A DNA stretch of 64,000 nucleotides from Auanema rhodensis. Taxonomy: Eukaryota > Animalia > Nematoda. The stretch lies in NCBI GenBank assembly GCA_964057225.1, contig OZ059896.1:11408001-11472000 (forward strand), given 5' to 3'. Position 1 is the stretch's first letter, and every line of letters begins with the position of its first letter. Of this stretch, positions 12,941-64,000 are shown piece after piece. Position numbers and translations under genes: made by a program. The notes beneath the pieces were generated by a model. It was given only the letters and a program-made list of their open reading frames with translations, made no database searches and was not told where the DNA came from.

Positions 12941-13325
12941 ACTTTACTAACCACGCCCCCAAACAGTTTTCAAAAACATCCTTTAGACGCTTCAGTTGCC
13001 AAAAACATATTTTCATACTCTCAGAGCATGGATTTCTAAAAAAAAGTTTTAAAAAAAAAGTAAGTTTTTACATTTTTTAAAATTCAAAATCTTGTAAATT
13101 ATATAACTGTAATTGATTTTTAAATATTAATAAAAACTTTCCAATCCAAACATATCATTTCACATACATTATAATTATTATTGAAATTACTTAATGTTGT
13201 TTATAATTTAATTTTGTTTTACATTACATTTCAACATAAAAATTTTAAGCCTGTAATTGATTTTTGAATATCAATAAGCTTTGCAATAGTAACTCCGAGT
13301 AACTTTTCACTGTACCTTATATGGT
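12941..13325 (+). mobile_element. Relic Y: degenerate Maverick TIR fragment
   Basis: tttactaaccacgcccccaaacag core, ending in ttcactgtaccttatatggt, which resembles TIR-internal ttcaccgtacctcttatgggt. Confidence 0.6.
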
Positions 13326-13633
13326 AGTAGAAAGCTGTGCAAAATTTACTAACCATGATCCCAAACAGCTGTCAAAAACATACTTTAGAGGGGCGTCAGC
13401 TTTGAAAATCATATCTTTGGACTCATACCTGAGCTCATGGATTTCTAAAAATATTCATGATTAAAAAAAATTTTTTTTCAAAATCAAACGTGTGTATAAT
13501 TATATATAAAATCATATTTTGGGATCATGGTTCATGGATTTTCCTTTTTAAAATAAAACATCATGATTCAAAACAAGATTTTTTTAAAATTTAATTAAAT
13601 TTTAAATTTGTTTTTCAAATGTATGTATATAGT
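13326..13633 (+). mobile_element. Relic Z: Maverick TIR start (B-like), interrupted by element A
   Basis: Begins agtagaaagctgtgcaaaatttactaacc, contains the B-type ggatcatggttcatggattttcc, and ends gtatgtatatagt as in the TIR of element C. Confidence 0.75.
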
Positions 13634-14176
13634 AGTAGAGAGCTATGCCGAATTTACTAACCACGCCCCCAAACAGTTGCTAAAAACATACTTTTGAGGG
13701 CGTCAGCTGTCAAAATCATACTTTTGGGGGCGTCAGCTGTCAAAATCATATTTTCGGCGTCAGCTGTCAAAAATATACTTTTCCTCCCGAGGCAGGCTCT
13801 CGAGCCTGCGCATGGATCAAAATGCATGATTTTTTTTAAAATCATTTTTAAAATTATTTTTTTAATGTTTTTTTAAGGAATTTTTATTATTTATATATTT
13901 GTTAATTGTATTTGTAAATATTTTTTAAAATTATTTCTTTTTAAATGTATTTTTAATATTTTTATATGTTTTAAATATTATTATTTAATTATTTCTTTTT
14001 AAATGTATTTTATATATTTTTAAAATATTATTAAAATTATCTCCTTTTAAATGTATTTTTAATATTCATACATTTGAATAAACTTTTTAATATATATTGT
14101 TTTTGTCTTAATTTATAAAATTTGAATATATATAAAAGCTAATAAATATGTTCACCGTACCTCTTATGGGTTAATT

Positions 14177-14940
14177 GATGGAACTCATATCGAAGGTTAA
14201 TTCGATAAGATATATTTTATATATTTATTTTTTTTTTGTTTACATTGTTTGCAGATTGTGTTTATTATAGTTTATAATTATTAATTTAACTTTTAAAAAG
14301 TCTGTTGTTTATGTAGGCAAACCATTTTGTTCACCGTACCTCTTATGGGTAAATCAATGGAACACATATCGAAAGTTAATTCGATAAGAACGATATGAAA
14401 TACAAAAGTTAATGAAACACATATCGAAGGTTAATTCGATAAGAACGATATGAAATACAAAATTCAATGGAACACATATCGAAGGTTAATTCGATAAGAT
14501 CGTTAAAACAGGTGCGCTGACCCACACATGTACCACATGGCAATAGTTTTGTTCATAAAAATATGATAAATAGCTGTACAGCACAAGTATCCATAACGCT
14601 AAAGAATACTTACTATGCCAAGGGGTCATGGGTATATAGTTTTTAGTATCAAAAATGTTAATGGAACACATATCGAATATCAATTCGATAAGATTGGTGA
14701 AACAGATACGTTGACCTACAATGAACCAAATGGCAAAGCACTTGTTCATTAAAGTATAACAAATAGCTGTATAGCATATGCATCAAGATTTCTAATATTC
14801 TCAAATTACGTGGAAAGAAGAGTATATAGAAAAAGTTTTAGTGTGTATATTACTAATATTCTAATACACTAACTCAATGGAACACATATCGAAGATTAAT
14901 TTAATAAGATTGTTGAAACAGGTGCGCTGACCACAACAAC
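14177..14940. repeat. Palindromic subterminal repeats ATGGAACACATATCGAA-N6-TTCGATAAGA, 6 copies in A
   Basis: Copies at about 14177, 14356, 14411, 14466, 14660 and 14876. Confidence 0.85.
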
Positions 14941-15140
14941 ACATGCGTATTTATTAACAACGGATTGGTAACTGTCACTGTTGACAGCTGTAATATGATA
15001 CAATGTTGAGTGTTGGCAACATTGTTACGTGACAATAAAACAACTGACTGTTCTTGCAATGAAGTGTAATATAAATGTGTAAAATGAAATATGGATAACT
15101 ACCTCTCAGAGTTTGCATAATTTTATTCTAACAAGATACA

Positions 15141-18100
15141 ATGGCTGCTAACAGGTTGTGTTTTTTCCTATCTTTTTTTTAAAATTAAAATATTTATTTT
15201 CAGTTATAAGCGTGTATGTGAAGAGTTGGGGTTCGATTATGAGGAAATTTATCAACTCAGGTAATTTAACAATATTTTTAAAATATACATCTTTGTTTTT
15301 TTAGTAAGCGCATAAAGCTTACCGAGAGTGGTGGTGTTGAGCTCTGCGACCCCGCAATAACCACTTCCAATAGTGGTCCCTCGTCATCGAGGGTTATTGA
15401 AGTTATCACCTTGGATGACAGCGATAATGAGTAAGCTATCATATGATGAAAAAGCATGAAATTTTTTTTTCAGAGAATGGAATCCCGAGATACCATCAAC
15501 TAGTGGAGAACAATTAGGAGGCGGTTCATCCTTCAACGATATTTGTCAAATAAAGGTACGAGCTTTTAAACTTTTTTTTTTTTCATGTTACAATTCTTTT
15601 CACTCTATATCTTTTATTTGATTACATATCTTGAGCAATTTTAAATTCTGCCATCTATTTTTAAACAAATCATCATACATTTGGTGACTTTTTGAAAAAT
15701 AAAATAAAATCTTATCCCAAATCCATGCCATAATATCATTTATTAAATTTTTATTCATTAAAATACACTTAAATTTAAATATTTTGATGCTCAAAAACTG
15801 ACACATTTAAATATTTTGTATTTTCTAAACCATTTCACTTCATCTCTTTTATTTAATTTCATATTTTAAACAATTTTAAATTTTTACCACTACTTTATAA
15901 TTTTTATTTATTAAACTTTTTAATCATTAAATTACACTTAAATTTAAATATTTTGATGCGCAAAAACAGAAACATTTAAATATTTTGTTTTTTCTAAACC
16001 ATTTCACTCCATCTATTTTAAACAATTTTATATTTCTACCACTATTTCATAATTTCATTTTTTAAATTTTTAATCATTAAAAAAAAAAACATTTAAATTT
16101 CAATATTGTGATGCTCAAAAACTGAAACATGAAATTGATTTATATTTTCTAAGCCATTTCACTTCATCTCTTTTATTTAATCACATATCTTGAACAAATT
16201 TAAATTTCTATCACTTTTTCATAATTTCGTTTATTAAATTTTTAATCACTAAAAAACATTTAAATTTCAATATTGTGATGCTCAAAAACTGAAACATTTA
16301 AATATTTTGTATTTTCTAAACCATTTCACTTCATCTCTTTTATTTATATATATTTTAAACAATTTTATAATTCTACTATTATTTAATTTTTATTTATTAA
16401 ATTTTTAAACATTAAAAAAAAAATTGATGCTCAAAAACTGAAACATTTAAATATTTTGTATTTTTCTAATCGTTTTGAAACAAACTAAACATATATTTGA
16501 AAACATTTCAATTAAATAAAAAATAACGACTATAACAAACAAAGAGACATAATAATTTTAAGCAAAAGATGAAACAATTCATATATATTCTTAAAACTAT
16601 TTTTATTTAAACTTTAAAAAAAAAAAATAAAAAAAAGCATGTAAACTGTTATAAATGTTGTTTATTATAGTGGTCACACCGGCGCATAAAACGCACCGGT
16701 CGTTTTACCAACGTGGTCGTTCGATCGCTCACGTTCCCACACTTGGAAAATGTTGATGAACCAATGCATGTTATCATGCCGCGGTTATTCAACGAATTCC
16801 TTGATCGTTGTCTTGCTGAAAGCGGTGTGCCTGATAATTTTTCTGTTTATCAATTGAGCACCCTTCCTTTGAAAAGGGCTCCATATTTATGGACTTTCGT
16901 AGAAGGGAGCATCTGGATGGCGTAGCCATTATGAATGCCATCAGCAAGGTGCAGCAATCAAAACGAGAGGCTGTGATCAGCCAGGCAATGAATATTGAGA
17001 TGTATGTGTTTGATGAAAGGCCAGCGCAGCCAAGCCTGATGCCTGGTGAAGGTAGAGTCGGGTTTTATTTTGACCCCGAACTCAAAATACCTGGAACAAT
17101 TGCCAACACTGACTCACATTGTCTGGCTAGATCAGCAGTTGTGGGAATGTGGAAAGCTGACGAGCTGGCCACTGAAGATGGCGATGAGAAGCGAAGGCTG
17201 CAAAACCTTCGTCGCAATTACATCTTATTGCCAAATCAGCCACACCATATCAATTTATTAAATAGGTGTGGTATTTCTGTAGATTTACCAAATTATAATT
17301 TAATTCATTTAAACATTATTGCCAGCTGTAATACAAACTATAAGTTTGTAGTATATGCTAGACCGCCTGGACAGCGTATGTACACTATCCAGAAAATATT
17401 TAATGAAGCGGCTAGCAAATTGGTAACACTAGGTTACCGAAATAATCACTATGATTGTATTACAGCTGGTAGTCGTTCGAAAATTTTTGATGGTATTATA
17501 TGTCAACACTGTAAGTTATCTTACAATACAGTGTTGCATAGATGTAAAGCCAAATGTAAAACATGCCACACCTATAATTGTAATGCGATGGGGAATGTGG
17601 TTGAGAGTAGCGTGAGGTGTGATAGTTGTAGAGTTTTGTTTAAAACTCAACAATGCTTCATTAGGCATTTGCGAAAAGCCTGCCGAAAATTCAAGGTATT
17701 TTGTGAAAATTTAAAGTTGTACATAACAAGCTTAAATTCAGACATGTGTGGCGTGTGATCACTATCACATGGTCCGTGCTGATAGACCGCACAATTGCAA
17801 TGGAAAATTCTGCAAAAAGTGCGGTCAGACAAAGCCTGAAGAGCACTCTTGTTGTTGGGTTCCACCTAACGACAAGAAGAAGGCTCAGCTAAAAAAGAAG
17901 CAAGAAAAGTTCAAGGTTTGTATTTAACATCTTTACAAGTGTAATGCTTACTTGTTTAAGATTATATTTTATGACTTTGAAACAGTTGTGTTAAAAAACG
18001 GCACAAATGTTCATGAATATGCAGATGAACAATGGCCCAATATGGTTGTGTATAACAAATTTTGTGAAAGTTGTATAGATGCCAATTCCTGTGAGAAATG

Positions 18101-19075
18101 CACAACCAAGGAGGGCCATTTTGGGTACCAACAAGGTGATAGTGAATGGTCTGTAACAGATCGTTTCCTTGATTGGTTACTCAACTTTTCTGAGAATGAT
18201 AATGCAATTTTGATTGCGCACAACGGGTCGCGCTTTGACATACATTTCTTGGTGTCTAGGCTGATAAACCGTGGAATATATCCTGACCCCATTTTAAATG
18301 GGACCAAGATTATTAGCATGGTTGTCAAGCCATTAAGAGGTCAAAACATTAACCATTTATATTTTAAAGATAGTTATTTACTAGTGCCTTTACCCTTATC
18401 AGCGTTACCCAAGGCATTTGGTGTACCTGATATGAGTAAAGGACAATTCCCATACCTCTTTAACCACCCAATAAATTATGGCAAAGTGCTACCATCCTTG
18501 CCGCCAAAGCATTACTATTGTACTGCTAGAATGAAAGCCGAAGACCTAGCTTCATTCAATGTTTGGTATGAGGAGCGTAATCAAAGTGTGTTTGATTTTG
18601 ATGAGGAGCTTCTGGAATATTGTAGGACAGATGTCCGTATTTTAACCAACTGTATGAAAGTGTACATGAAGTTGGCCACCGCCACCACTGGCTGGAATCC
18701 TGTCATACAATGTATGACATTTGCCAGTTTCTCTTTATTCCAGGCAAGTTTTTTAAAATACAAGCATTTTCAAAACTAGTATATTACAGTTGAAAATGAA
18801 CCACATTAAAGAGAACCAAGTGGGTATTCTGCCTGAGACTGGTTATTATGCCGGCCAGAAGCAGAGTATAATTGCCATAAAATACATAAAATGGCTAGAA
18901 CACGGATTAGGCCGCCCATTAATGCATAAGCTTAATGGTGGTGAATTTGTTGTGAGAGTAGATGGCCAACGCTATCTACTTGATGCTTATGACAGTGTGG
19001 CTAATCACGGCTATGAGGTGAGTAATTTGTAATAAATGTAAAAAAAATGAAAAATTTTGTAGTTTAATGGCTGTA
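15141..19075 (+). pseudogene. pPolB of element A, 5' part (exons 1-9)
   Basis: Near-identical to the D copy, with a net 10-bp deletion at about 16838 (frameshift). Cut by element B in the NGC codons. Confidence 0.9.
15760..16470. repeat. About 165-bp degenerate tandem repeat inside pPolB intron 4 (subfamily A)
   Basis: Recurring gatgctcaaaaactgaaacatttaaatattttg: 5 units in A, 4 units in D (53620-54170). Confidence 0.8.
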
Positions 19076-20015
19076 AGTAGAGAGCCGTGCAAAATTTACT
19101 AACCACGCCCCCAAACAGCTGTCAAAAACATACTTTTGGGGGCGTCAGCTGCTAAAAACATACTTTTGGGGCGCGTCAGCTGTCAAAAACATATTTTTGA
19201 GCGTCAGCTGTTAAAATCATATTTTAGGATCATGGTTCATGGATTTTCCTTTTTTAAATATAAAAGTCATGATTTAAAGCATGATTTTTTTTTTTTTTGA
19301 TTTTTTTTTTTAATTTTTTTTTTTTTTTTAAATCAAATTTAAATATGCTTTTTCAAATGTATGTATATATTTTCAATTATTTTTAAATATATTAAGTAAA
19401 AATAAAAATCTTAATTTTAAATATTTAAATTATATTTAAATTTTATATATATATAAATTTTATTTAAACTTTAATTATTTAAATTATATTTAAATTTTAT
19501 ATATATAAATTATATTTAAACTTTAAATTTTATATATAAATTATATTTAAATTTTAAATATATAAATTTGTTTTTAAATTTTATTTATTTCTTTATTATA
19601 TTTATTAATAATGTTTGTTTACTTATTTTGTTTATTTTTTATTGTATTGTGTTTGTATTGTTTTTATTTTAAAGATCAATAAAATTTTTGCATGTAGATA
19701 ATTTTGTTCACCGTACTTGTTATGGGTAATTCAATGGAACACATATCGAAAGTTAATTCGATAAGAACGATATGAAATACCAAAATTTAATGGAACACAT
19801 ATCGAAGGTTAATTCGATAAGAACGACATTAAATTATTAATTTTTGAAATTGCGAATTGTTATTAATTATATTTATTCTAACAAGTAAAGGCTTCAAATT
19901 ATAATAAAAGATTAGTTTTAAACTTTATTTTACTAATATAACAATACAATAACTAAATAGAGCACACATTGAAGGTAAATACAATAAGATTAACAAACAG
20001 TTGCGCTGACCTCAA
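19076..20015 (+). repeat. Left TIR of element B
   Basis: Reverse complement of 33737-34828 up to ttgcgctgacctcaa. Confidence 0.92.
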
Positions 20016-20648
20016 CGCCAGGCATATCGATGGTTAATAAACAGTAATAACTGCACTGTGGGGGTTTAAATATAGTATAATCATTTTAACATTTCAAAAG
20101 TTTTAGTTTCGTAATATAATCATTATTAAATATTAAAGAATGAAATATTTTTTACATATAAAACGTTGGCAGTCATATGTTTTGTGATACAATATGGGTT
20201 TAAAAGTATACTATGATTAATATATGAGCTATTAAGCAAAGTTTAAAAAGCGTAAATGTTTTACAGAGATGGCTGTTGTTTATGGCACAAACGGTAAAAA
20301 TAATGTTTAAAGAGATGTAAAAACTAATTAATATGCAGATTGTTTACAGGTTCAGAGTGCGCCAACTGCTGGCAACTGTCGATGAGATGAGTATATCTGC
20401 ATAAATATGCTGTAAAATCTAATTAATAAAAGAATTTCATCAGCAAACTTGATTGTAACACAATGGGTTGTACTTTACAAAGATCTTTGTATAAAAGGTT
20501 GGCAATTTTGCTACATTTACATTTCAGCTCTGCCGACTATCCGAGGATCCGACGTTTCACCATCTCCTGCCACTCTTTGCCAATCGCCATAGACTGCTCC
20601 TCTCTGCAAGTTTGCCTTATATTTTAGAAAGTTGGATCTTTAGCGGAA

Positions 20649-21234
20649 ATGAAGCGTGCTGTACTTGCTGATGTGACAAATGTTGTGCGCAAATCGCCTG
20701 AACCTGAAGTACCACGACCACCCACACCAGCACCAAATTTCACAAGTTTTGGTATGAACCTTAACTTGTCTTTTTTAAATCTTTAATTTAGATTCACCAA
20801 TAAAGCAGATGGAGATTCTGAGAGAGAGCACTCCACCAAGGAGTGTATTAATGAGACCAATTTGTCTCTGCAAAACTTGTAGGGAATCATTGCAGGTTAT
20901 AGACGAGTATCACTGTTTCAGCCTCTGTATAAAGTGTAGAGGAAGGAATGATGCGTTGGGTCTTTTGAAGGAGTTTCGTCACTATAAGCCCGAAAAGTTC
21001 TCTATTAATGTAAGCTTGCATATTTATTTATTTTCAATTTTATATTTTTTTTAGATGCGCTCTTATAACACCATGACGTGCAAGCAATTGTTGAACAATA
21101 TGGGCTATATTGTTATATATGCAGATGAGGCTACTGTAAAGACTTTTGGTTATAAGCAGAATGTATTCTACTTTAAACTAAGTCCTGAAGCACTCAACCT
21201 GAACATGTTTATCCGCTTTGATCCTTCATTTTGA
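20649..21234 (+). CDS. Spliced 166-aa protein with D-box-like motif, SP/TP sites and Cys/His cluster (element B)
   Basis: Exons 20649-20751, 20792-21009 and 21055-21234 join in frame; a homolog with the same introns occurs in A. Confidence 0.75.
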
Positions 21235-21529
21235 CTACAACAAGCACAAATAGTACAATTGGCGTTTTATTCTTGTTTTGTTATGTGGCATTTTTATATT
21301 CTCAGCCGTAACATTTTTTTTTTCCAGCTCTTGCGAATATCCATCAATGGCTCATCAATTGAGGACGAATGATCAACCAACTGGTAAGAATTTGAAAATT
21401 TGAATAGTCTACATTTTTTTTTTCCAGGTTGAATTGTTGTTTGTATTTTGCTGGTTTTTTATTGTTACATTATGCGATATATCAAATAAATCATTTATTA
21501 TAATTACAATTGTTTATAACATTGAAAAA

Positions 21530-22597
21530 TTATACATTTAAATTTTCTGCATCTATCCATTCATTAAAGTTGTCGGGATATCCACTCCATTTTACAAATA
21601 CTTGACGTTTACCGCTTCGAGTACGCTCTTTTAAAACTTTTTCTATATAGTACTGGTTGCTTTTATTAGTAGCCAAGACAAGTTCAGGTTCGTAGAATAT
21701 TCCCTTTATACGTTCACCATTATAATCTACAAGTTTATACACGGTTGGGTTTCCGGTTACAACCTCATCAATTGTGAACAGCTCCATTGTATATCCAGAC
21801 TCGTAGCTTTTTTCAAAAGTACGCCTATGTTTGCTTATGCGAACAGTATCACCAATTTTAAAGCGGCTTTTAACAGTTGGTGCATATTCTTCAATGAATA
21901 TATTTGCTTTAACATCAATGGGCCGCATTTTTATGGAGCGGTTATAAGATTTGTTTATTCCTTCAACCAAATCATCTAAGATATCAATCCATCGATGATT
22001 ATTCTTGTAATAGAGATATTTCATCATGCGTGTTTTTAAAGTTCTATTTGCTCGCTCCACCATTGCAGCCTTTTGAGGTGAACTTGTAGATCCGTGCAGT
22101 ATGGCAAACTTTTTGAATAGTTTTTCACAATGACTATTATAAAACTCTGTGCCATTATCAGTAATCAACTGAATTGGTATAAAATTCTTGAATAAATTTT
22201 CAAATGCACTAGCAACCTCTATACCACCTTTAGTTTTCAAAGGCCTAACATATAACATGCGTGTATAAACATCAATCATGGTCAACATGTAAGCATAGCC
22301 GTCGTTTAATTTTTTATATTTTTGCATATCAACCAAATCTGCTTGCACTGTTAGAAATCGACCACATCCTCTAGTCTTTCTAGTCTGCATACGCATTCTG
22401 GTTGGTTTATGTCGTGTAAAAGTTTCAGAATCTTGCAAAAAATCATCAACTTGTACCTTTGAAATGCCATGTTTTCGTGCTTGCGATAATAAATTCTTGG
22501 CTGATGTATATGAAGCTGGGTGTTTTATATCGTAATAAATGCTCGCCAAAATATCATTTCCATAATCTAATGTAGAACCTTTTACGACCTTGGCCAT
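21530..22597 (-). CDS. Retroviral-type (rve) DDE integrase with C-terminal chromodomain (B)
   Basis: QADL..IDVYTR..TDNGTEF..VERANRTLK; YYIEKVL..VKWSGYP..NEWI. Confidence 0.95.
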   Translation of the reverse strand: MAKVVKGSTLDYGNDILASIYYDIKHPASYTSAKNLLSQARKHGISKVQVDDFLQDSETFTRHKPTRMRMQTRKTRGCGRFLTVQADLVDMQKYKKLNDGYAYMLTMIDVYTRMLYVRPLKTKGGIEVASAFENLFKNFIPIQLITDNGTEFYNSHCEKLFKKFAILHGSTSSPQKAAMVERANRTLKTRMMKYLYYKNNHRWIDILDDLVEGINKSYNRSIKMRPIDVKANIFIEEYAPTVKSRFKIGDTVRISKHRRTFEKSYESGYTMELFTIDEVVTGNPTVYKLVDYNGERIKGIFYEPELVLATNKSNQYYIEKVLKERTRSGKRQVFVKWSGYPDNFNEWIDAENLNV

Positions 22598-23575: not shown

Positions 23576-23587
23576 TGAACAAGCACT

Positions 23588-24235: not shown

Positions 24236-24314
24236 AATCAACCACTCGTAAATGTACCTAAAATGCAAATGATTTCATTTGCAATAGTGTACACGTATCA
24301 AGTGGTGGTTTGTC

Positions 24315-25172: not shown

Positions 25173-25177
25173 ACGTT

Positions 25178-25642: not shown

Positions 25643-25683
25643 TAGAGGAAAATGAAAAACGACCACACGCAATCAACCCACTT

Positions 25684-25854: not shown

Positions 25855-25895
25855 AACTGACCACGTAATGTAGCAGATTATTAATGACAAATTTC

Positions 25896-26351: not shown

Positions 26352-26402
26352 TTTAGTAGAATGATCTAGTGTAACTTTTGTATTGCGCGCGTGCGGTTCG
26401 AT

Positions 26403-34828: not shown

Positions 34829-34834
34829 GCTGTA

Positions 34835-41398: not shown

Positions 41399-41410
41399 TG
41401 TGCATGTTCA

Positions 41411-52989: not shown

Positions 52990-55900
52990 ATGGCTGCTAA
53001 CAGGTTGTGTTTTTTCCTATTTTTTTTTTAATTAAAATATTTATTTTCAGTTATAAGCGTGTATGTGAAGAGTTGGGGTTCGATTATGAGGAAATTTATC
53101 AACTCAGGTAATTTAACAATATTTTTAAAATATACATCTTTGTTTTTTTTTTTTAGTAAGCGCATAAAACTTACCGAGAGTGGTGGTGTTGAGCTGTGTG
53201 ACCCCGCAATAACCACTTCCAATAGTGGTCCCTCGTCATCGAGGGTTATTGAAGTTATCACCTTGGATGACAGCGATGATGAGTAAGCTATCATATAATG
53301 AAAAAGCATGAAATTTTTATTTTCAGAGAATGGAATCCCGAGATGCCATCAACTAGTGGAGAACAATTAGGAGGCGGTTCATCCTTCAACGATGTTTGTC
53401 AAATAAAGGTACGAGCTTTTAACCTTTTTTTTTTTTTTCATGTTACAATTCTTTTCACTCTATATCTTTTATTTGATTACATATCTTGAGCAATTTTGAA
53501 TTCTGCCATCTATTTTTAAACAAATCATCATACATTTGGTGGCTTTTTGAAAAATAAAATAAAATCTTATCCCAAATCCATGCCATAATATCATTCATTA
53601 AATTTTTATTCATTAAAATACACTTAAATTTAAATATTTTGATGCTCAAAAACTGACACATTTAAATATTTTGTATTTTTTAAATCATTTCACTCCATCT
53701 CTTTTATTTAATTTCATATTTTAAACAATTTTAAATTTTTACCACTACTTTATAATTTTTATTTATTAAACTTTTTAATCATTAAATTACACTTAAATTT
53801 AAATATTGTGATGCTCAAAAACTGAAACATGAAATTGATTTATATTTTCTAAGCCATTTCACTTCATCTCTTTTATTTAATCACATATCTTGAACAAATT
53901 TAAATTTCTATCACTTTTTCATAATTTCGTTTATTAAATTTTTAATCACTAAAAAACATTTAAATTTCAATATTGTGATGCTCAAAAACTGAAACATTTA
54001 AATATTTTGTATTTTCTAAACCATTTCACTTCATCTCTTTTATTTATATATATTTTAAACAATTTTATAATTCTACTGTTATTTAATTTTTATTTATTAA
54101 ATTTTTAAACATTAAAAAAAAAAAAATTGATGCTCAAAAACTGAAACATTTAAATATTTTGTATTTTTCTAATCGTTTTGAAACAAACTAAACATATATT
54201 TGAAACCATTTCAATTAAATAAAAAATAACGACTATAACAAACAAAGAGACATAATAATTTTAAGCAAAAGATGAAACAATTCATATATATTCTTAAAAC
54301 TATTTTTATTTAAACTTTAAAAAAAAAATAAAAAAGCATGTAAACTGTTATAAATGTTGTTTATTATAGTGGTCACACCGGCGCATAAAACGCACCGGTC
54401 GTTTTACCAACGTGGTCGTTCGATCGCTCACGTTCCCACACTTGGAAAATGTTGATGAACCAATGCATGTTATCATGCCGCGGTTATTCAACGAATTCCT
54501 TGATCGTTGTCTTGCTGAAAGCGGTGTGCCTGATAAGCAAAAAGCCTTATTTTGTTTATCAATTGAGCACCCTTCCTTTGAAAAGGGCTCCATATTTATG
54601 GACTTTCGTAGAAGGGAGCATCTGGATGGCGTAGCCATTATGAATGCCATCAGCAAGGTGCAGCAATCAAAACGAGAGGCTGTGATCAGCCAGGCAATGA
54701 ATATTGAGATGTATGTGTTTGATGAAAGGCCAGCGCAGCCAAGCCTGATGCCTGGTGAAGGTAGAGTCGGGTTTTATTTTGACCCCGAACTCAAAATACC
54801 TGGAACCATTGCCAACACTGACTCACATTGTCTGGCTAGATCAGCAGTTGTGGGAATGTGGAAAGCTGACGAGTTGGCTACTGAAGATGGCGATGAGAAG
54901 CGAAGGCTGCAAAACCTTCGTCGCAATTACATCTTATTGCCAAATCAGCCACACCATATCAATTTATTAAATAGGTGTGGTATTTCTGTAGATTTACCAA
55001 ATTATAATTTAATTCATTTAAACATTATTGCCAGCTGTAATACAAACTATAAGTTTGTAGTATATGCTAGACCGCCTGGACAGCGTATGTACACTATCCA
55101 GAAAATATTTAATGAAGCGGCTAGCAAATTGGTAACACTAGGTTACCGAAATAATCACTATGATTGTATTACAGCTGGTAGTCGTTCGAAAATTTTTGAT
55201 GGTATTATATGTCAACACTGTAAGTTATCTTACAATACAGTGTTGCATAGATGTAAAGCCAAATGTAAAAAATGCCACACCTATAATTGTAATGCGATGG
55301 GGAATGTGGTTGAGAGTAGCGTGAGGTGTGATAGTTGTAGAGTTTTGTTTAAAACTCAACAATGCTTCGATAGGCATTTGCGAAAAGCCTGCCGAAAATT
55401 CAAGGTATTTTGTGAAAATTTAAAGTTGTACATAACAAGCTTAAATTCAGACATGTGTGGCGTGTGATCACTATCACATGGTCCGTGCTGATAGACCGCA
55501 CAATTGCAATGAAAAATTCTGCAAAAAGTGCGGTCAGACAAAGCCTGAAGAGCACTCTTGTTGTTGGGTTCCACCTAACGACAAGAAGAAGGCTCAGCTA
55601 AAAAAGAAGCAAGAAAAGTTCAAGGTTTGTATTTAACATCTTTACAAGTGTAATGCGTACTTGTTTAAGATTATATTTTATGACTTTGAAACAGTTGTGT
55701 TAAAAAACGGCACAAATGTTCATGAATATGCAGATGAACAATGGCCCAATATGGTTGTGTATAACAAATTTTGTGAAAGTTGTATAGATGCCAATTCCTG
55801 TGAGAAATGCACAACCAAGGAGGGCCATTTTGGGTACCAACAAGGTGATAGTGAATGGTCTGTAACAGATCGTTTCCTTGATTGGTTACTCAACTTTTCT

Positions 55901-58603
55901 GAGAATGATAATGCAATTTTGATTGCGCACAACGGGTCGCGCTTTGACATACATTTCTTGGTGTCTAGGCTGATAAACCGTGGAATATATCCTGACCCCA
56001 TTTTAAATGGGACCAAGATTATTAGCATGGTTGTCAAGCCTTTAAGAGGTCAAAACATTAACCATTTATGTTTTAAAGATAGTTATTTACTAGTGCCTTT
56101 ACCCTTATCAGCGTTACCCAAGGCATTTGGTGTACCTGATATGAGTAAAGGACAATTCCCATACCTCTTTAACCACCCAATAAATTATGGCAAAGTGCTA
56201 CCATCCTTGCCACCAAAGCATTACTATTGTACTGCTAGAATGAAAGCAGAAGACCTAGCTTCATTCAATATTTGGTATGAGGAGCGTAATCAAAGTGTGT
56301 TTGATTTTGATGAGGAGCTTCTGGAATATTGTAGGACAGATGTCCGTATTTTAACCAACTGTATGAAAGTGTACATGAAGTTGGCCACCGCCACCACTGG
56401 CTGGAATCCTGTCATACAATGTATGACATTTGCCAGTTTCTCTTTATTCCAGGCAAGTTTTTTAAAATACAAGCATTTTCAAAACTAGTATATTACAGTT
56501 GAAAATGAACCACATTAAAGAGAACCAAGTGGGTATTCTGCCTGAGACTGGTTATTATGCCGGCCAGAAGCAGAGTATAATTGCCATAAAATACATAAAA
56601 TGGCTAGAACACGGATTAGGCCGACCATTAATGCATAAGCTTAATGGTGGTGAATTTGTTGTGAGAGTAGATGGCCAACGCTATCTACTTGATGCTTATG
56701 ACAGTGTGGCTAATCACGGCTATGAGGTGAGTAATTTGTAATAAATGTAAAAAAAAAATGAAAAATTTTGTAGTTTAATGGCTGTATTTATCATGGTTGC
56801 CCCCAGTGCACCAACAAGACTGCTATTGCACCAGGCAGAAATGGTGAAACAATGGAAGAGGTAACCAATACTTTTTTAAATCATTTTAAGCTGAAACATT
56901 TAGGTTTATGAAAAAACCATGAAAAGGCTTGAGGCTATTCAAAGCCAGGGCATTAGTGTAACCACTGTGTGGGAACACGAAATTACTGCTCAAATGTCAT
57001 CAAATGAGCAAATGGCAAATTTTATGAAGGACACTGAGGTTGTAACTCGATTGGCACCTCGAGATGCCTTCACCGGCGGCCGAACTCAAACATATAAGCT
57101 TCTGGCCCAAGCTTCGGATAGATACTCACTAGAGTATGTGGACTTTTGTTCACTTTATCCATATGTAACGGCATTTGATGCCTATTACCCTGTGGGTAAT
57201 CCTAAAGTGATTACTGAGGGCTTTGAGAGTTTTGAGGCATGCTGCCCATACAAGGGCCTTGTGAAATGTGACGTGCTTGCACCCACAAATTTGTTGTATC
57301 CTGTATTAGGAACACGCATAGGCGGTAAATTAATTTTTACAAACTGCCGCACATGTGCAAACAGAGGCAAAAATGTAACATGCCCGCACCAAGATGATGA
57401 AGACGCTCGAAAGCTGCATCTGACTGTAACGCATGTAGAGCTCGAATGTGCCATACAGCGTGGCTACAAAGTGCTTCATGTTTATGAGGTTTGGCACTGG
57501 GATGAATGGCAGCAAGGCGGCCTATTCAAGGATTTTGTACAAAAGTACATAAAAATTAAGCAAGAGGCATCGGGCTGGCCTAAGCCAAATATGACAGAGG
57601 CTGAAAAGGTATGTGTCATGAAAAGTATGGCATTAAATAGAATTTTACAGCTAAAATATCTCCAAGAGCACGAGGAGAACACTGGTGTTGCTCTGGAGAG
57701 CAACAAAATTGAAAAGAATGCGGCCATGCGTAGCATTGCCAAACTACAGCTGAATAGGTATGTAAACTTTTAAAAATAAAAATTTACAAATTTGTTTATA
57801 GTGTATGGGGTAAAATGGGTCAAAGACCGGATAAAGCCCAAACCAAGATTATTGGTGTTGAGGATCCTGAAATTGGTAGGATCATAACTGATCCTGCAAG
57901 GGAACTCACGGGCTTCAAAATTGTGGACGATGTGGCGTACTGTACAACAGTGCCAGAAGACTCACACCTGGCACCAGCGCCGTTTACAAATGTAGCCATA
58001 GCGGCTTATACAACCGCTCATGCAAGGCTACTATTGTATAAGGCAATGGAAAAAATTGGAAAGAACTTGGTGTATACAGGTAATTTTATACTTTGTATAC
58101 AATTTAAACGTACATCATTTAGACACCGATTCTCTAATTTATTTAAAATGCCTCGATCAGCCTGATCCAATTGAGGATATGAAGGGTGAATGGTTAGGTA
58201 AACTAACCTCAGAAATACCCGATGGTTGGTCAATGACCAAATTTGTTTCACCAGCTGCAAAAGTTTATAGTTATGAGCTAGTAAATGCAGCTGGTCAGGT
58301 CAAGTATATCACCAAGGCAAAGGGAGTGGTAAGTATAAAAATATATTATTGAGAAACTTTTTAAAATTACAGACGCTGGACCACACGGCAGCCACCGTGG
58401 TAAACTATCAAAGTATGGAGCGATTGGTTCGAGGACTCGTGATGGATGGAGAAAAATTGGTTTTAAAAACCAAAACAACGTTATTAAAGAGGCAGCTTGG
58501 TGCCATATCCACGATGGACATGACAAAGAGTACCAAGGTCGTAATGGATAAACTTTGTTATCTAGACGATTTTAGTACTTTACCCTATGGTTATTGTGAA
58601 TAA
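52990..58603 (+). CDS. Protein-primed DNA polymerase B, 14 exons, about 1370 aa (D)
   Basis: Exons 52990-53003, 53051-53107, 53157-53282, 53327-53408, 54370-55404, 55451-55624, 55670-56452, 56499-56726, 56774-56860, 56904-57608, 57651-57757, 57802-58079, 58123-58328 and 58373-58603 total 4113 nt with consistent phases. Confidence 0.92.
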
Positions 58604-58741
58604 TTTTTAATATATTTGAATTTATAAATTTTATTATCGCGTGTATATTTGTATATGGTTGTATTTATAGATTTTTATGTATAGTTGTATTAATAAATTT
58701 TATTCTTCTCATCAAATGTTTTAAAGAGTTTATTACATACA

Positions 58742-60076
58742 TTACAAACTGGTATCAATATATGGAGCACGATTGTTGTCAATTGAAAGAATAGAGTCAT
58801 ATTCTGCATAAACAATAGCATATAAACCCTCTTGCGGCGTTTGTTGACCAAATTCCAATTTCAGGGCCACATTACCTTGTCGTATAACATCAAATAACTC
58901 GGACGAGTGTACAGTCGGTGAAATATCAAATACAAAAAATGTGAAGCCGGTTTTATACATTGCTGGTGTAATACCATTGGATGAATCTGTACGACCAAGA
59001 CCCAAACCCTCCAACATGTCAATATATGCTGTGGCATAGGAAGAACGCCATTCTAAATTATAAGGGCGGGTAGGTATTACCCGATTGTTGAGCGTCAAGT
59101 ATATATTTTTCAATTCAAACGGTTTAAAGTTGAATGGCGAATGTTTAAAAGTACCATTATAGGCGTGTGCGCCGACAAGACCTACTACAACACGTTTCGG
59201 TGTATGCGACGTGAATAATATGTTATTGGGTGAATCCAAACGGCCTCCTTCTATGAAATAAGAGCGCATTTTCACTGACGTCATGGGGTAGTGTATTCGT
59301 TCCTTTACAAGTTTATCTTCTATAGCCATAGCTAATCCAGCGTTTAGATCAAACTCTTGAATAAGCAAGTGCACATCGTTGATATCTATTTTCAGGTTTG
59401 GAAACTCCTCCTTCGTTGCAGCATCCTTGCTTTCATTATTCCATCCAAGTGTGTCAATTAAGAAATTATCACGGTTTGGATATGCAGTTAGCTCCATTTT
59501 TGAATAGTTTACAAACAGTCGTTCCTGATTGAATAAGTCGATACTGATGGGAGCAGCCATCTCACACAATATGCCATTTTTAACAAGCCCTTGTCGCGCT
59601 CTAAAGCCAGGACTGGCTGCATTATCTATATATCTATCCGCATAATAGCCTGATATGGCAAGTTTGCTCTCTTTAACATCGTTGCTATACATTAGAATAT
59701 TCTCAATATATGTTTTGTAGGCATGATTTACGGTAGAGTCATACACGCTAACATCACCAATTTTTAAATGATACGAGTGTATCAAACTGGCTGCAAATTG
59801 TTGGCATGGTGCAAAAACAAGGTTGTCTGGTACCGGATCACCGTTTGTGGTTACAATTTTGAATTTTACATTCAACCAACACCTTCTCAGATTAAGAAAT
59901 GATTTGGAATTTTGGGCTATAACAAATTCCCATGGTCCTTGAGGAAGAAAAGTATTTTTTAAAGGAACTTGTACAGTACGAGTGGATTCAACACCTAATG
60001 CCGACGCCGGTATGTCACTATAATTAATATTAGGTAAAAGTGCTTGTGCTGATTTTGAATCTATCAATTTAGCCAT
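58742..60076 (-). CDS. Major capsid protein (D), intact 444 aa
   Basis: Homolog of 26856-28190. Confidence 0.92.
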   Translation of the reverse strand: MAKLIDSKSAQALLPNINYSDIPASALGVESTRTVQVPLKNTFLPQGPWEFVIAQNSKSFLNLRRCWLNVKFKIVTTNGDPVPDNLVFAPCQQFAASLIHSYHLKIGDVSVYDSTVNHAYKTYIENILMYSNDVKESKLAISGYYADRYIDNAASPGFRARQGLVKNGILCEMAAPISIDLFNQERLFVNYSKMELTAYPNRDNFLIDTLGWNNESKDAATKEEFPNLKIDINDVHLLIQEFDLNAGLAMAIEDKLVKERIHYPMTSVKMRSYFIEGGRLDSPNNILFTSHTPKRVVVGLVGAHAYNGTFKHSPFNFKPFELKNIYLTLNNRVIPTRPYNLEWRSSYATAYIDMLEGLGLGRTDSSNGITPAMYKTGFTFFVFDISPTVHSSELFDVIRQGNVALKLEFGQQTPQEGLYAIVYAEYDSILSIDNNRAPYIDTSL

Positions 60077-60529
60077 TTAAATACGATACGACCGCTCACG
60101 AGTTATGCACAGACGCTTATGAGGTTTTGTGGTTTTGCGTCGTCGCCGCTTGCCCAAACCGGTAAGATCTCGTATAGCCTGCCGGCCGGCTGTTTTAAGA
60201 GTTTGCTTGATATTATCGCCCTTGAGCACCCCATCAACAATTTCATTGCTAGTTTTTAGCAACTGGCCGCCAAGAGGTGAATTTACAACTGGACTATTGC
60301 TTACAGCACTGGATAATGCATTCCTTCCAGCATTGATGAGATTTTGGGCTATAGGTGATTGAATAATGCGTGGTAAAAACGATGCCAATGTTGCCAGTAT
60401 ACCACCCAGGCCATGACCTCTCTGCATACCACGTTGAAACATCATTCCACTAAATGGCGCCCCACCCATTTGTTGATTCAAAAGTGTTGTCCATTGAATT
60501 GAGTTCAAGTCTAGAAGAAGGTGTGGCAT
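60077..60529 (-). CDS. Putative core precursor (D)
   Basis: QRGHGLGG and LTGLGKRRRRK. Confidence 0.75.
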   Translation of the reverse strand: MPHLLLDLNSIQWTTLLNQQMGGAPFSGMMFQRGMQRGHGLGGILATLASFLPRIIQSPIAQNLINAGRNALSSAVSNSPVVNSPLGGQLLKTSNEIVDGVLKGDNIKQTLKTAGRQAIRDLTGLGKRRRRKTTKPHKRLCITRERSYRI

Positions 60530-60579
60530 ATTGAACCGCACGTGCGCAATACAAAAGTTACACTAGATCATTTTACTAA

Positions 60580-61035
60580 ATGTATTCGTCTGAAATAGCG
60601 TCACTATTGCGATCTGTCCGCATCACTCGAAAACTATTCCTCGGTGTATTTAGCGCGGATACTCTACCCAAAACACGTCGAAAGAACTTTGCACTTGTTG
60701 TAAATACTGACACACACGATAAACCGGGCACACATTGGCAAGTCATCTTTGTACGTAATGATCAAGCCTACTTTTTCTGTAGCTTGGGTTATAAAATGAA
60801 CAAGTACATTCGTCATTATCTGGCCAAATATAAAAATGTAAAAGTTAATACTTGCAAACCACAACGCATAATTGAATACACTTGTGGTGGTTATGCAATA
60901 TTTGTAATACTAATGTTGTCAGCTGGTAATACATTTGAAAGCATTTGTTCATTTTTTAAACTATTACAAAACGATGATGTCTTTATTAAAGCGTTTATGC
61001 ATAAAGTATTCGACTATAAATTATCTAGCATATGA
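60580..61035 (+). CDS. Adenain-like protease (D)
   Basis: PGTHW and TCGGY. Confidence 0.9.
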   Translation: MYSSEIASLLRSVRITRKLFLGVFSADTLPKTRRKNFALVVNTDTHDKPGTHWQVIFVRNDQAYFFCSLGYKMNKYIRHYLAKYKNVKVNTCKPQRIIEYTCGGYAIFVILMLSAGNTFESICSFFKLLQNDDVFIKAFMHKVFDYKLSSI

Positions 61036-61081
61036 TCAACCTCGCCATTAAAACGTCACCTGCTACATTAGGTGGTCAGTT

Positions 61082-61252
61082 ATGAATATTCCCTGTCACT
61101 GTGAATTATGTATAAGATACACGTTGGAACAATCTGTGCCAACACCCCTGTACAAAAAGATTTTGAAACGTATTTCAGTGCCATTCATTAAAGGAATATC
61201 TCTGGGACTAGGCTTTTGTACAACACTAGTCATTATTCCACTCATTATATAA
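61082..61252 (+). CDS. 56-aa TM microprotein (D)
   Basis: Same as 39132-39302. Confidence 0.72.
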   Translation: MNIPCHCELCIRYTLEQSVPTPLYKKILKRISVPFIKGISLGLGFCTTLVIIPLII

Positions 61253-61293
61253 AAGTGAGTTGACTGTGTGTGGTTGTTTTTTATTTTCCTCTA

Positions 61294-61758
61294 ATGGAAC
61301 TTTTATGTAACAAGTATTGTGTTACGTGCAAGGAAATATTTTCATCAGCCAAGCATTTTAGTGATCACGTATTAAAAAGACATGACGGGATTCAACCCGT
61401 ATGTAACAGTTATATCAGCAATGCTGACTTTATTCAAAAATATGGACATTTGGATGGTGTTCGTAGACGTTTGTGCCCTTATTGTAGTGAAACTTTTGGA
61501 ACAAGATTCAATTGTCAGCGTCATATTCGGCGTCTTCATAATAGTAATGGAACGAATGGTAAAGATGGTGATGGAAATGATACCAGCGAACCCTCTGAAA
61601 AAACTGAGGAGTTTGTACAGTCAACCGAACCAAAACGATGCCGCTGCAATAGTAACCGAGAATATTCACAACACGAGCCGCGCATCGAACAAAACGGCGC
61701 TGAACTACCTTTTAAACCTTCGAAAATCGTAATGTGGTCTTGTATAACTGTTGAATAA
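61294..61758 (+). CDS. Double C2H2 zinc-finger protein (D)
   Basis: Two C2H2 motifs. Confidence 0.8.
   Translation: MELLCNKYCVTCKEIFSSAKHFSDHVLKRHDGIQPVCNSYISNADFIQKYGHLDGVRRRLCPYCSETFGTRFNCQRHIRRLHNSNGTNGKDGDGNDTSEPSEKTEEFVQSTEPKRCRCNSNREYSQHEPRIEQNGAELPFKPSKIVMWSCITVE
61382..61732 (+). CDS. Overprinted membrane protein (D)
   Basis: Same as 39432-39782. Confidence 0.7.
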   Translation: MTGFNPYVTVISAMLTLFKNMDIWMVFVDVCALIVVKLLEQDSIVSVIFGVFIIVMERMVKMVMEMIPANPLKKLRSLYSQPNQNDAAAIVTENIHNTSRASNKTALNYLLNLRKS

Positions 61759-61763
61759 AACAT

Positions 61764-62139
61764 TTATTTCACATTTTTAACATGTAATGTAACAACTGTA
61801 GAACCATAATTAAATTGCATAGGGCGGCCAAATTCATCTAAAATTTCAATACGTATAGTATCGAGTGTTTGCTTAGTGATTGGTACATAACGAATAGGAT
61901 TAAATGTTTTGGCAATCATTTTACCAAATTCGGTGGGAGGTGGTACAGGTAAACATGCAAGTAAATTAGCTTTCACATTACCGAGAATGGAATATTCTAC
62001 AATATCACAATATATATACATTGTATTAATGTTATTTGAAAAATCAATGGGGCGCCTGGCTATTAACGTGTCGTTGATAATTTTATTCTCAAAGCCAAGA
62101 AAATATGCGAGAGCATCACCGAGTGTTGCATTCAATAAG
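61764..62139 (-). pseudogene. Penton of D, 3' part; disrupted by element E
   Basis: Identity to the A penton stops at ttcaataa, followed by g and the E terminus. Confidence 0.9.
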
Positions 62140-64000
62140 AGTAGAGAGCCGTGCAAAATTTACTAACCACGCCCCCAAACAGCTGTCAAAAACATACTTT
62201 TGGGGGGCGTCAGCTGCTAAAAACATACTTTTGGGGCGCGTCAGCTGTCAAAAACATATTTTTGAGCGTCAGCTGTTAAAATCATATTTTGGGATCATGG
62301 TTCATGGATTCTCCTTTTTTAAATTTAAAAATCATGATTTAAAGCATGATTTTTTTTTAAATCAAATTTAAATATGCTTTTAAATGTATGTATATATTTT
62401 TAATTATTTTTAAATATATTAAGTAAAAATAAAAATCTTAATTTTAAATATTTAAATTATATTTAAATTTTATATATATAAATTATATTTAAACTTTAAA
62501 TATTTAAATTATATTTAAATTTTATATATATAAATTTTATTTAAACTTTAAATTTTATATATAAATTATATTTAAATATTTAAATATTTAAATATGTAAA
62601 TTTGTTTTTTAAATTTTATTTATTTATTAAATTTATTAATAATGTTTGTTTACTTGATTTGTTTATTTTTTATTGTATTGTGTTTGTATTGTTTTTATTT
62701 TAAAGAACAGTAAAATTTTTGCATGTATATCGTTTTGTTCACCGTACTTGTTATGGGTAATTCAATGGAACACATATCGAAGGTTAATTCGATAAGAACG
62801 ATATGAAATACAAAATTCAATGGAACACATATCGAAGGTTAATTCGATAAGAACGATATGAAATACAAAATTCAATGGAACACGTATCGAAGGTTAATTC
62901 GATAAGAACGATATGAAATACCAAAATTTAATGGAACACATATCGAAAGTTAATTCGATAAGAACGACATTAAATTATTAATTTTTGAAATTACAAATTG
63001 TTATTAATTATATTTATTCTAACAAGTAAAGGTTTCAAATTATAATAAAAGATTAGTTTTAAACTTTATTTCACTAATATAACAATACAATAACTAAATA
63101 GAGCACACATTGAAGGTAAATACAATAAGATTAACAAACAGTTGCGCTGACCTCAATGAAACGCATAAAGTTAATTTAATAAGAACTAATAACAAAAATT
63201 AATCCGACGGGGACAATAAAAACAGATGTATTCAATAAGCTTATTTATTTTAAAGTTTATCGCAACTGCTAGTTTTGACAGCTGTACCCAAATCCATGTT
63301 ACATAACAAATTACAATGCCAACAGCAATGTGTAGACTGATGTATTCATTATATCAAGGTACAATGGCTGCTAATAGGTTGTGTCTTTTTGATTATTTGT
63401 TTGTAAACTTTTTCTTTTTTTAGTTATAAACGTTTATGTGAAGAGCTAGGATTTGATTATGAAGAAATCAATCAGCTCAGGTAATTTAACAATATTTTGA
63501 ATCTTTATATATATTTTGTTTTTTAGTAAACGTATAAAGTTTACCGAGGCTGGTGGGATCGAGCTCTGTGAGCCCACATCACCCACTTTTAACAGTGGGC
63601 CCTCATCATCAAGGGTTATTGAAGTAATAACCTTGGATGACAGTGATGAGTAAGCGATATTAAAAATTATAACAATTAGTTTTTTCTTTTTAAGCGAATG
63701 GGATCCTGCTACCCCATCAACCAGTGGAGGACAAGTCGGATATGGAGCGGCATTCAACGATGTCTGTAAAATAGAGGTGCGATCTTTTATTTACATATCA
63801 TTTCATAATATATCTTTTGAAACATGAAATTTTCTCTTGCTCCAATTGCATATTTTGAAAACATTTTGAAATTTATTTCTCTTTTTCAATTGCTCTCTCT
63901 CTCATCTTTACATTTCATCTCAATCTATATCTTTTTTCAAACAAATTGCAAGTATTTTGAAATTTACATATTCATTCTTTTGAACAACATTCATTTTAAA
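62140..64000 (+). mobile_element. Maverick element E (subfamily B), left end; runs off the window
   Basis: AGTAGAGAGCCGTGC terminus; TIR to about 63156. Confidence 0.93.
63364..63777 (+). CDS. pPolB exons 1-4 of E (partial)
   Basis: MAANSYKRLCEELG..VIEVITLDDSD..QVGYG, with the same introns as C. Confidence 0.8.

Follow-up and report, generated by a model that had tools for sequence, protein, structure and literature searches.

A nest of young Maverick elements beside a likely programmed DNA elimination break in the nematode Auanema rhodensis

The 64,000-nucleotide stretch of Auanema rhodensis DNA analysed here (contig OZ059896.1; hereafter the window) contains a nest of five young and two decayed Maverick ends plus a LINE, each interrupting its predecessor. 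The nest starts about 50 bases past a likely programmed elimination break, and weak purging combined with a chromodomain-guided insertion bias probably built the stack. Since depth collapses at a palindrome that likely marks such a break, the stack is likely germline-only DNA, discarded from body cells. The features of the region are the following.

11291 to 12660, minus strand: host bestrophin gene, PF01062 on two exons, exons seen at both ends of the span
12869 to 12897, no strand: candidate Sequence For Elimination (SFE), a 29-bp degenerate palindrome with GGC at 12879-81, a 3-bp spacer and GCC at 12885-87
12930 (approximate start) to 13325, no strand: relic Y, a decayed Maverick terminal repeat lacking the AGTAGAG end, cut by relic Z
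13326 to 13633, no strand: relic Z, an older terminal repeat nearer the B/C/E type, cut by A
13634 to 19075, plus strand: left part of Maverick A (subfamily 1), with terminal repeat, polymerase exons 1-4 and the start of exon 5
19076 to 34828, minus strand: complete Maverick B (subfamily 2; 15,753 bp), sitting in polymerase exon 5 of A
34829 to 45245, plus strand: Maverick A resumed, from polymerase exons 5-10 through the integrase to the subterminal region, with an approximate right boundary
45246 to 47375, minus strand: 3' part of a LINE, cut by C, with a short AT-rich tail near 45250
47376 to 51389, plus strand: left 4.0 kb of Maverick C (subfamily 2), interrupted by D within polymerase exon 3
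51390 to 62139, plus strand: left 10.75 kb of Maverick D (subfamily 1), interrupted by E within the 285-codon ORF
62140 to 64000, plus strand: left end of Maverick E (subfamily 2), continuing past the window edge

Maverick termini reading AGTAGAG(AGC) are present on the plus strand at 13634, 19076, 47376, 51390 and 62140 and on the minus strand at 34828, with a variant terminus at 13326; a preliminary description of this DNA had placed the exact plus-strand termini and the variant at these same positions. The bare 7-mer AGTAGAG also occurs at 22740, 44423, 44428 and 46621 without adjoining terminal-repeat sequence, which follows the motif only at the listed termini. Self-alignment of the window is consistent with the order Y>Z>A>{B; LINE>C>D>E} put forward in that description. 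The elements fall into two subfamilies, A/D and B/C/E, which are 11% apart. Divergence between A and D is 0.69% in the left part of A (2,772 columns) and 0.58% in the resumed part (5,358 columns), the latter being 11.4% from B; C differs from B by 1.08%, and E from B and C by about 2.3%. Relic Y shows 63-71% identity to the other termini, and relic Z 78-82% to the B/C/E termini and 68-70% to those of A/D. The reverse transcriptase frame of the LINE is open across 538 codons (PF00078, E 4.9e-34); local alignment at the A/LINE junction left the boundary unfixed.

B is flanked by a 6-bp target-site duplication (19070-19075 = 34829-34834), and the empty site for its insertion is seen in copy D at 56781-56786. 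Its terminal repeats (19076-20051 and 33700-34828) are about 1 kb each and identical in 198 of 198 aligned terminal columns. When the last 25 bases before each insert are compared with an uninterrupted sibling site, mismatches number 0 for B and D, 1 for E, 2-3 for A in Z and 7 for Z in Y; the junctions of B, D and E are base-precise against the host element. A carries frameshifts in polymerase exon 1 and in the capsid gene, a stop in exon 6 and two changes of frame within the 238-codon ORF, and it is interrupted by B in exon 5 and by the LINE. In D, the cut made by E aside, no lesion is found in the 15 frames covered. The earlier statement that A is lesioned and D intact is therefore borne out for those frames, the 238-codon ORF lying outside the span of D and not being a like-for-like comparison. 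Private substitutions number 30 in A and 11 in D (p=0.004), and a pN/pS of 0.57 in A, against 0.16 and 0.12, indicates relaxed constraint. A is thus more decayed than D. The perfect duplication around B, the base-precise junctions, the excess of private substitutions in A and its relaxed constraint uphold the sequential insertion proposed earlier. Assembly chimerism was rejected as the source of the nest, as it can make neither the duplication around B nor separate lesions in A and D. D is not a simple daughter of present-day A, since it contains neither B nor the lesions of A. An orientation bias was also rejected: four of the five insertions point the same way, too small a sample.

Published ranges for Mavericks/Polintons put the terminal inverted repeats at 100-1,500 bp and the element at 13-25 kb (Jeong et al. 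2023, PMC10748475; Widen et al., bioRxiv 10.1101/2022.07.12.499685); a target-site duplication of 5-8 bp is a further criterion. B agrees with them in terminal repeats, size and duplication, and has the polymerase, integrase and double jelly-roll capsid gene of a Maverick/Polinton. All 19 frames examined in B are open, and its genes are as follows.

21530 to 22597, minus strand: integrase with a chromodomain at the C-terminus (PF00665 E 1.4e-8; PF00385 E 3.7e-8)
22554 to 23575, minus strand: 238- and 102-codon ORFs, no Pfam match
23588 to 24235, minus strand: predicted packaging ATPase, with a Walker A-like motif in the translation and sub-threshold P-loop Pfam matches
24315 to 25172, plus strand: 285-codon ORF, resembling unnamed Preplasmiviricota proteins in the Atlas (0.98)
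25178 to 25642, minus strand: C2H2 zinc-finger ORF (PF13894 E 4.4e-5, below the curated cut-off)
25896 to 26351, minus strand: predicted adenovirus-type protease (PF00770 E 0.001, below the curated cut-off)
within 26403 to 28190, plus strand: 150-codon ORF preceding the major capsid gene
26856 to 28190, plus strand: major capsid protein (model pLDDT 76.9)
28335 to 32554, minus strand: protein-primed DNA polymerase B (pPolB; PF03175), at least 10 exons with nine introns of 42-47 nt

The integrase match to PF00665 scores 35.3 bits (cut-off 32.6) and DDE-type motifs are visible. The best structure matches of its chromodomain are the Rhino and HP1 chromodomains; it has Phe at the position of the acidic cage residue of HP1, a point against the chromatin bias proposed below. 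The capsid model resembles iridovirus, mavirus, Sputnik and PBCV-1 capsids (E about 1e-14), so that, judging from the model, B carries a double jelly-roll major capsid protein. The 285-codon ORF likely encodes the minor capsid protein. Sizes and positions of the ATPase, protease and minor capsid candidates fit a Maverick/Polinton, with Pfam matches below cut-off for the ATPase and protease and unnamed look-alikes for the minor capsid protein. A search for relatives of the capsid protein in viral contigs, an Atlas search with the 238-aa protein and an ATG12 search yielded no candidates. A faint, sub-cut-off Pardaxin match on the 150-codon ORF was taken as chance.

PF03175 is above cut-off on two pPolB exons, and all ten exons match 8 of 65 long homologues. 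The interruptions of the polymerase frame were attributed to introns and not to frameshifts, because intron ends are common to B and D, phases are consistent and exon ends abut in the homologues; all nine introns are present in both subfamilies. The longest ATG-started ORF in B has 444 aa and the gaps with no assigned gene are about 1.5 and 1.1 kb, so that, by ORF and gap length, B appears to have no space for a fusogen of 730 aa or more. These elements are an unusual Maverick variant, with a nine-intron polymerase and no apparent room for a fusogen.

On the left, the nest borders host genes. The nearest named protein of the host is from Auanema sp. JU1783 (60%), and 222 bp separate the bestrophin start codon from the inferred end of the somatic chromosome. 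The earlier remark that these genes are free of insertions holds for the elements of the nest, in that bases 1-12900 match nothing in the remainder of the window (E<1e-3). Between genes and nest, the candidate SFE has 9 of 14 palindromic pairs (5 mismatches), is the best of six GGC-NNN-GCC sites in the window and is the only one in the 1,531 bases examined for depth (0.6% of positions). A GGC-NNN-GCC in polymerase exon 1 of each Maverick was rejected as a break, having 7 of 14 pairs and no AT-rich arms. In Oscheius tipulae the SFE has a GGC-NNN-GCC core with 3-8 mismatches, and in A. rhodense the break falls between motif positions 14 and 15, with a coverage of 236x against 29x (PMC13060919; bioRxiv 10.64898/2026.08.27.747507). 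Position 14 of the 29-mer is 12882, in agreement with the published break position, and this break may be among the 28 published A. rhodense sites. Relics Y and Z and Maverick A start 48, 444 and 752 bp from it.

Depth was followed over 12300-13830 in contigs of four of the 15 runs identified (X1, X4, X7 and X8), from three studies; being contigs, these data are silent on cell type, and junction support reaches 13536. Depth drops at the candidate SFE in all four runs, 4- to 100-fold (ratios 1% to 19%). In X1 a 12,071-bp host contig (115.7x) stops at 12882, and in X8 a host contig (158.2x) stops at the same base, where depth becomes 3.7x. Depth goes from about 983x to 9.86x in X4 and from 15-21x to 4x in X7, the listed host contigs of both stopping at 12857, not 12882. 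An X1 contig of 684 bp (12853-13536, 11.1x) joins host to Y and Z with 0 differences, and a 613-nt low-depth record of X4 matches only from its 13th letter onward. Bin arithmetic implies an extra 96x record in X1 that is confined to 12853-12882, beyond which it departs from the stretch; for X4 it implies about 854x as far as 12882. Telomere letters were absent from the loose contig ends inspected, a subset that excludes 53 further records. We infer telomere addition, with 12882 as the last base common to telomere-healed and unbroken molecules.

In the terminal bin, summed terminal-repeat depth amounted to 30-193x the host depth and 157-19,208x the germline depth; in an inner bin the corresponding values were 10-35x and 91-3,474x, so that it follows host depth better than germline depth. 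This depth, which is not a copy number, suggests many copies in retained DNA or extrachromosomal amplification. As it tracks somatic depth, the Maverick family probably also occurs outside eliminated DNA. At an X4 loose end at 13673 a terminal repeat appears, by eye, to be joined to polymerase exon 2, indicating that deleted Maverick copies exist.

According to the proposed explanation, in the early embryo DNA would be cut at 12882, a telomere would be added on the gene side, and all DNA to the right would be discarded. A 16-kb insert right of the break would impose no cost on the soma and strike no gene, so purging would be weak; an insert to the left would strike packed genes. Both active subfamilies would insert repeatedly with 6-bp duplications, each insert disrupting its target element. 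The HP1-like chromodomain of the integrase likely biases it toward silenced chromatin, which would focus insertions on earlier copies. In a null calculation, uniform insertion yields a five-member nest only if young copies make up at least a quarter of the tolerated DNA, which argues for a local bias. The "hotspot or trap" of the preliminary description therefore holds in outline, but its cause, Mavericks seeking Mavericks, is not demonstrated, and the sharp edge against host genes coincides with the likely break at 12882, which offers another explanation for it. A bolder reading, to be taken as tentative and doubtful, is that this lineage homes to discarded break flanks, which would be Maverick traps stripped from body cells, the element being adapted to eliminated DNA.

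Insertion could instead have been uniform, the stack arising passively because 16-kb inserts are tolerated in only a small amount of non-satellite DNA. Those who described elimination in A. rhodense propose that selective surveillance of the eliminated DNA is weak (PMC13060919; bioRxiv 10.64898/2026.08.27.747507), and a total of 100 young copies spread over 2 Mb, or 300 over 5 Mb, gives an expectation of 2-11 nests of this kind. However, fewer than 0.13 are expected for up to 300 copies in 20-100 Mb of tolerated DNA, and the starts of Y, Z and A all lie within 752 bp of the break, which makes this account unlikely. The same three successive ends, together with 12.9 kb of neighbouring DNA free of Mavericks, could point to homing to the break site, or to a host that positioned or retained a break at this place in order to isolate a pre-existing nest. 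Either seems rather unlikely: this is a single locus, the distances may have been shortened by subsequent deletions, given the erosion of Y and Z, and terminal-repeat depth hints at copies in retained DNA.

An element end attacking nearby DNA produces adjacent deletions, which likewise leave a precise element terminus abutting interrupted sequence. Some of the junctions of C, D, E and A, each visible from one end, could be such deletions or rearrangements, as both ends are visible in B only and the X4 loose end points to deleted copies. Yet C, D and E belong alternately to subfamilies 2, 1 and 2, decay is further advanced in the outer copy, and B demonstrates ordinary insertion at the locus, leaving this account improbable. 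If there were no elimination, the nest would be ordinary heterochromatin, and the depth drop would stem from an assembly join or from an insertion allele at low frequency. The lack of telomere letters in the ends inspected, the silence of contigs on cell type, and the chance that the best-matching run is the source of the window sequence itself are compatible with this. It is nevertheless highly improbable, because in four of four runs the drop falls within the sole GGC-NNN-GCC of 1,531 bases, at the published motif position and 48 bp before the first Maverick DNA, and a 0-difference contig spans the join.

Why animals eliminate DNA is debated, as a defence against mobile elements or as a refuge where they accumulate. 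A datable series of giant transposons beside a base-precise break in a free-living worm is a case for which refuge, targeting and defence predict differently. A nematode Maverick type with a spliced polymerase and no fusogen would escape ORF-length screens, and mostly somatic DNA assemblies will undercount such elements. For instance, the cross-eukaryote screen of Jeong et al. accepted only elements whose pPolB ORF reached 900 aa (PMC10748475), a threshold that a spliced polymerase would miss.

The present elements share terminal inverted repeats, a 6-bp duplication and size with nematode Polintons (PMC10748475; bioRxiv 10.1101/2022.07.12.499685), as well as pPolB, integrase and capsid genes, with ATPase and protease predicted here. 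A. rhodensis Polintons are named in figure legends of Widen et al. (bioRxiv 10.1101/2022.07.12.499685). However, described nematode Polintons carry a fusogen of 730 aa or more, and their core genes are intronless according to the same authors (bioRxiv 10.1101/2022.07.12.499685), whereas here pPolB has nine introns. The word "nested" does not occur in the main texts of PMC10748475 and bioRxiv 10.1101/2022.07.12.499685. In the accessible literature no description was found of Maverick-in-Maverick stacks, of Mavericks at nematode elimination sites or of an intron-rich pPolB; Repbase entries and closed papers could differ. From what is accessible of PMC8547959 and PMC12220804, endogenous virophages and PLVs hold nested retrotransposons, to which the LINE in A is comparable, whereas here Mavericks lie within Mavericks to four levels. 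Chromodomain-guided integration is reported for chromoviruses (Gao et al. 2008), and the C-terminal integrase chromodomain is likewise suspected to steer site choice here; a chromodomain has also been noted in adintovirus integrases (PMC8502044).

Maverick/Tlr elements of Tetrahymena (PMC5182062) are self-synthesising and reside in a germline genome that undergoes elimination, as is likely here; they make up 1.9% of that genome, and Tlr is termed germline-limited. They differ in belonging to a ciliate, where they are excised as internal eliminated sequences; that study assembled none of them completely and does not use the word "nested" (PMC5182062). If the homing reading were true, the present lineage would be an animal counterpart of these germline-limited elements. 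The eliminated DNA of O. tipulae and A. rhodense is described as satellite blocks and helitrons (PMC13060919; bioRxiv 10.64898/2026.08.27.747507), with "Maverick" and "Polinton" absent from the main texts searched, while here it would include Mavericks. Shared with those systems are the 29-bp palindrome, the GGC-NNN-GCC core, the break after position 14 and a drop of about tenfold, along with transposon-derived genes in the eliminated DNA and the model of weak surveillance, as proposed here.

The sequence to the right of about 12.9 kb is resolved by self-alignment into two Maverick subfamilies, two older relics (Y and Z) and a LINE, nested in the order Y>Z>A>{B; LINE>C>D>E}. The subfamilies A/D and B/C/E are 11.4% apart. 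The element termini claimed in the preliminary description are present where it had placed them. The main features, including the gene for the protein-primed DNA polymerase B of Mavericks (pPolB), are the following:

13634-19075 and 34829 to about 45245, Maverick A
19076-34828, Maverick B, inserted in polymerase exon 5 of A
28335-32554, pPolB gene of B
45759-47375 (-), reverse transcriptase frame of the LINE
47376-51389, Maverick C, inserted in the reverse transcriptase frame of the LINE
51390-62139, Maverick D, inserted in polymerase exon 3 of C
54370-58600, pPolB gene of D
62140-64000, Maverick E, inserted in a 285-codon ORF of D

B is bordered by the same six bases on each flank, and the empty site for its insertion is present in D. 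The 25 bases preceding B, D and E differ from the uninterrupted sibling by 0, 0 and 1 mismatches, respectively, up to the junction base. Two-ended insertion is proven for B only, as each of A, C, D and E has its right end past the window; the one-ended junctions could also be due to adjacent deletions. The reverse transcriptase frame of the LINE is open across all 538 codons seen, so this element is young too. In the terminal and subterminal repeats of A-E, units of about 30, 55 and 167-169 bp form arrays, alongside self-complementary AT-rich tracts; copy number varies, and the two ends of B already differ in it.

Divergence is 0.58-0.69% between A and D, 1.08% between B and C, and about 2.3% between E and either B or C. 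With B as outgroup (7,765 columns), 30 private substitutions are assigned to A and 11 to D, with 6 unresolved (p=0.004). The private coding changes of A comprise 19 replacement and 9 silent (pN/pS 0.57) and those of D 3 and 5 (0.16); between the subfamilies there are 194 and 440 (0.12), a background from which A departs (p=1e-4) whereas D does not. Thus, A has decayed in place longer than D, in agreement with the sequential insertion, outer A before D, proposed from the sequence.

Host bases 1-12900 are densely occupied by nematode genes, namely NDST, ATG12, IFRD, a PP-loop protein, a phosphatase and bestrophin. They give no match to the nest in the within-window comparison. For a host exon, the closest named relative belongs to Auanema sp. 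JU1783 (60%), and strongylids come next (52-55%). Only 222 bp separate the bestrophin start codon (12660, minus strand) from the putative somatic telomere. Upstream of this codon there is a TTTCAG acceptor of the kind found in trans-spliced genes.

A 29-mer at 12869-12897, some 50 bp to the left of relic Y, is a candidate SFE (Sequence For Elimination). Its centre is GGC, three bases and GCC, with 9/14 palindromic pairs, and it is the best of the six GGC-NNN-GCC cores in the window. O. tipulae breaks at GGC/GCC-type motifs and primes telomeres on GGC/GCC (PMC13060919), and in A. rhodense the break falls between motif positions 14 and 15, with a coverage of 236x vs 29x (bioRxiv 10.64898/2026.08.27.747507). 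GGC-NNN-GCC also occurs in polymerase exon 1 of all copies spanning it (16919, 32288, 49677 and 54628), with 7/14 palindromic pairs; its retention there is probably due to chance.

Depth over 12300-13830 was compared in contigs of four of the 15 listed runs (X1, X4, X7 and X8), from three studies. In X1, the contig that stops at 12882 is 12,071 bp long and has a depth of 115.7x; another of 684 bp, at 11.1x, covers 12853-13536 with 0 differences, confirming the host-Y-Z join. In X8, the contig stopping at 12882 has a depth of 158.2x, against 3.7x for the next piece listed. Depth falls from about 983x to 9.86x in X4 and from 15-21x to 4x in X7; the listed host contigs of both stop at 12857, and the X4 depth bins are compatible with another record, at 854x, reaching 12882. 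The X1 bins are compatible with a third record, at 96x, restricted to 12853-12882, which is the pattern expected of a telomere branch. Within the 29-mer, 12882 corresponds to position 14. The motif represents 0.6% of the positions compared, and the site was predicted ahead of the depth test. We infer telomere healing at 12882, no telomere letters being seen among the contig ends displayed. Read support for the nest joins covers those up to 13536.

The nest itself is real, it likely lies at a programmed break, and it most likely sits in DNA discarded by somatic cells. Large insertions would be weakly purged there, a model stated for repeats in general by the A. rhodense authors (bioRxiv 10.64898/2026.08.27.747507). 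Under a branching null with uniform insertion, a five-member nest requires young copies to constitute at least about a quarter of the tolerated DNA: with 300 copies, the yield is 0.002 nests in 60 Mb and 11 in 5 Mb. Since, in addition, three Maverick ends fall no more than 752 bp from the break, an added local bias in insertion is suggested, which would most simply come from the integrase chromodomain reading silent chromatin.

Summed terminal-repeat depth is, across runs, 30-193x the host depth vs 157-19,208x the germline depth, following the former far better, by a crude measure inflated by 30-bp internal repeats. This argues that the family is also present in retained DNA or amplified outside chromosomes, the eliminated region then being a place where nests survive and not the only home of the family. 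Terminal-repeat depth (13652-13830) peaks in X4, in which the germline share is lowest among the runs. Read by eye, a loose end at 13702 (X1, X8) carries a second Maverick terminal motif within the terminal repeat of another locus, which hints at nesting elsewhere, and one at 13673 (X4) apparently joins the terminal repeat to polymerase exon 2, as in an internally deleted copy.

B encodes a chromodomain-bearing integrase, a predicted ATPase, a candidate protease, the major capsid protein, pPolB and, likely, a minor capsid protein, and has a zinc-finger ORF. By structure comparison, the major capsid model resembles virophage and giant-virus capsids, and the closest relatives of the chromodomain are Rhino and HP1. 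The three aromatic positions of the HP1-type cage are retained and the acidic one is not. The pPolB gene contains nine host-sized introns (42-47 nt) that are conserved in both subfamilies, with ends common to B and D. The phases of its ten exons chain properly provided that the third intron has a GC donor at 56453 (GC-AG, read from sequence). In long homologues, exon ends adjoin, at most one residue apart, at seven of the eight joints tested (the second to the ninth), and the remaining one scatters; additional 5' exons may exist.

A 238-aa Maverick ORF (22554-23270, minus strand), without match in Pfam or Atlas, is disrupted in A relative to B. A small gene that evolves fast, contains Cys pairs and is apparently spliced (A 43700-44620, minus strand; B 20330-21500, plus strand) lies between the integrase and the terminal repeat, the site of cargo genes according to Widen et al. 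(bioRxiv 10.1101/2022.07.12.499685), the region in A including a 30-bp coding-like repeat. A second short frame, spliced in appearance, is found at 33100-33600.

No report was found in the literature searched of a Maverick stack at a programmed break or of an intron-rich pPolB, although the supplements of the A. rhodense preprint may list this break and these genes; the words 'Maverick' and 'Polinton' are absent from the nematode elimination papers that were word-searched. Nematode Polintons have been described, Auanema included (PMC10748475; bioRxiv 10.1101/2022.07.12.499685), but those described carry a fusogen, for which B has no space. Also described are SFE-type elimination in nematodes (PMC13060919; bioRxiv 10.64898/2026.08.27.747507), Maverick/Tlr elements in the Tetrahymena germline (PMC5182062), viral elements with nested retrotransposons (PMC8547959, PMC12220804), chromodomains of integrases (PMC8502044) and dinoflagellate polintoviruses with introner insertions; PMC11075566 yielded nothing further. 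Each ingredient is already known, and the combination is that of a Maverick stack at a probable programmed break, in an unusual spliced, fusogen-less lineage.
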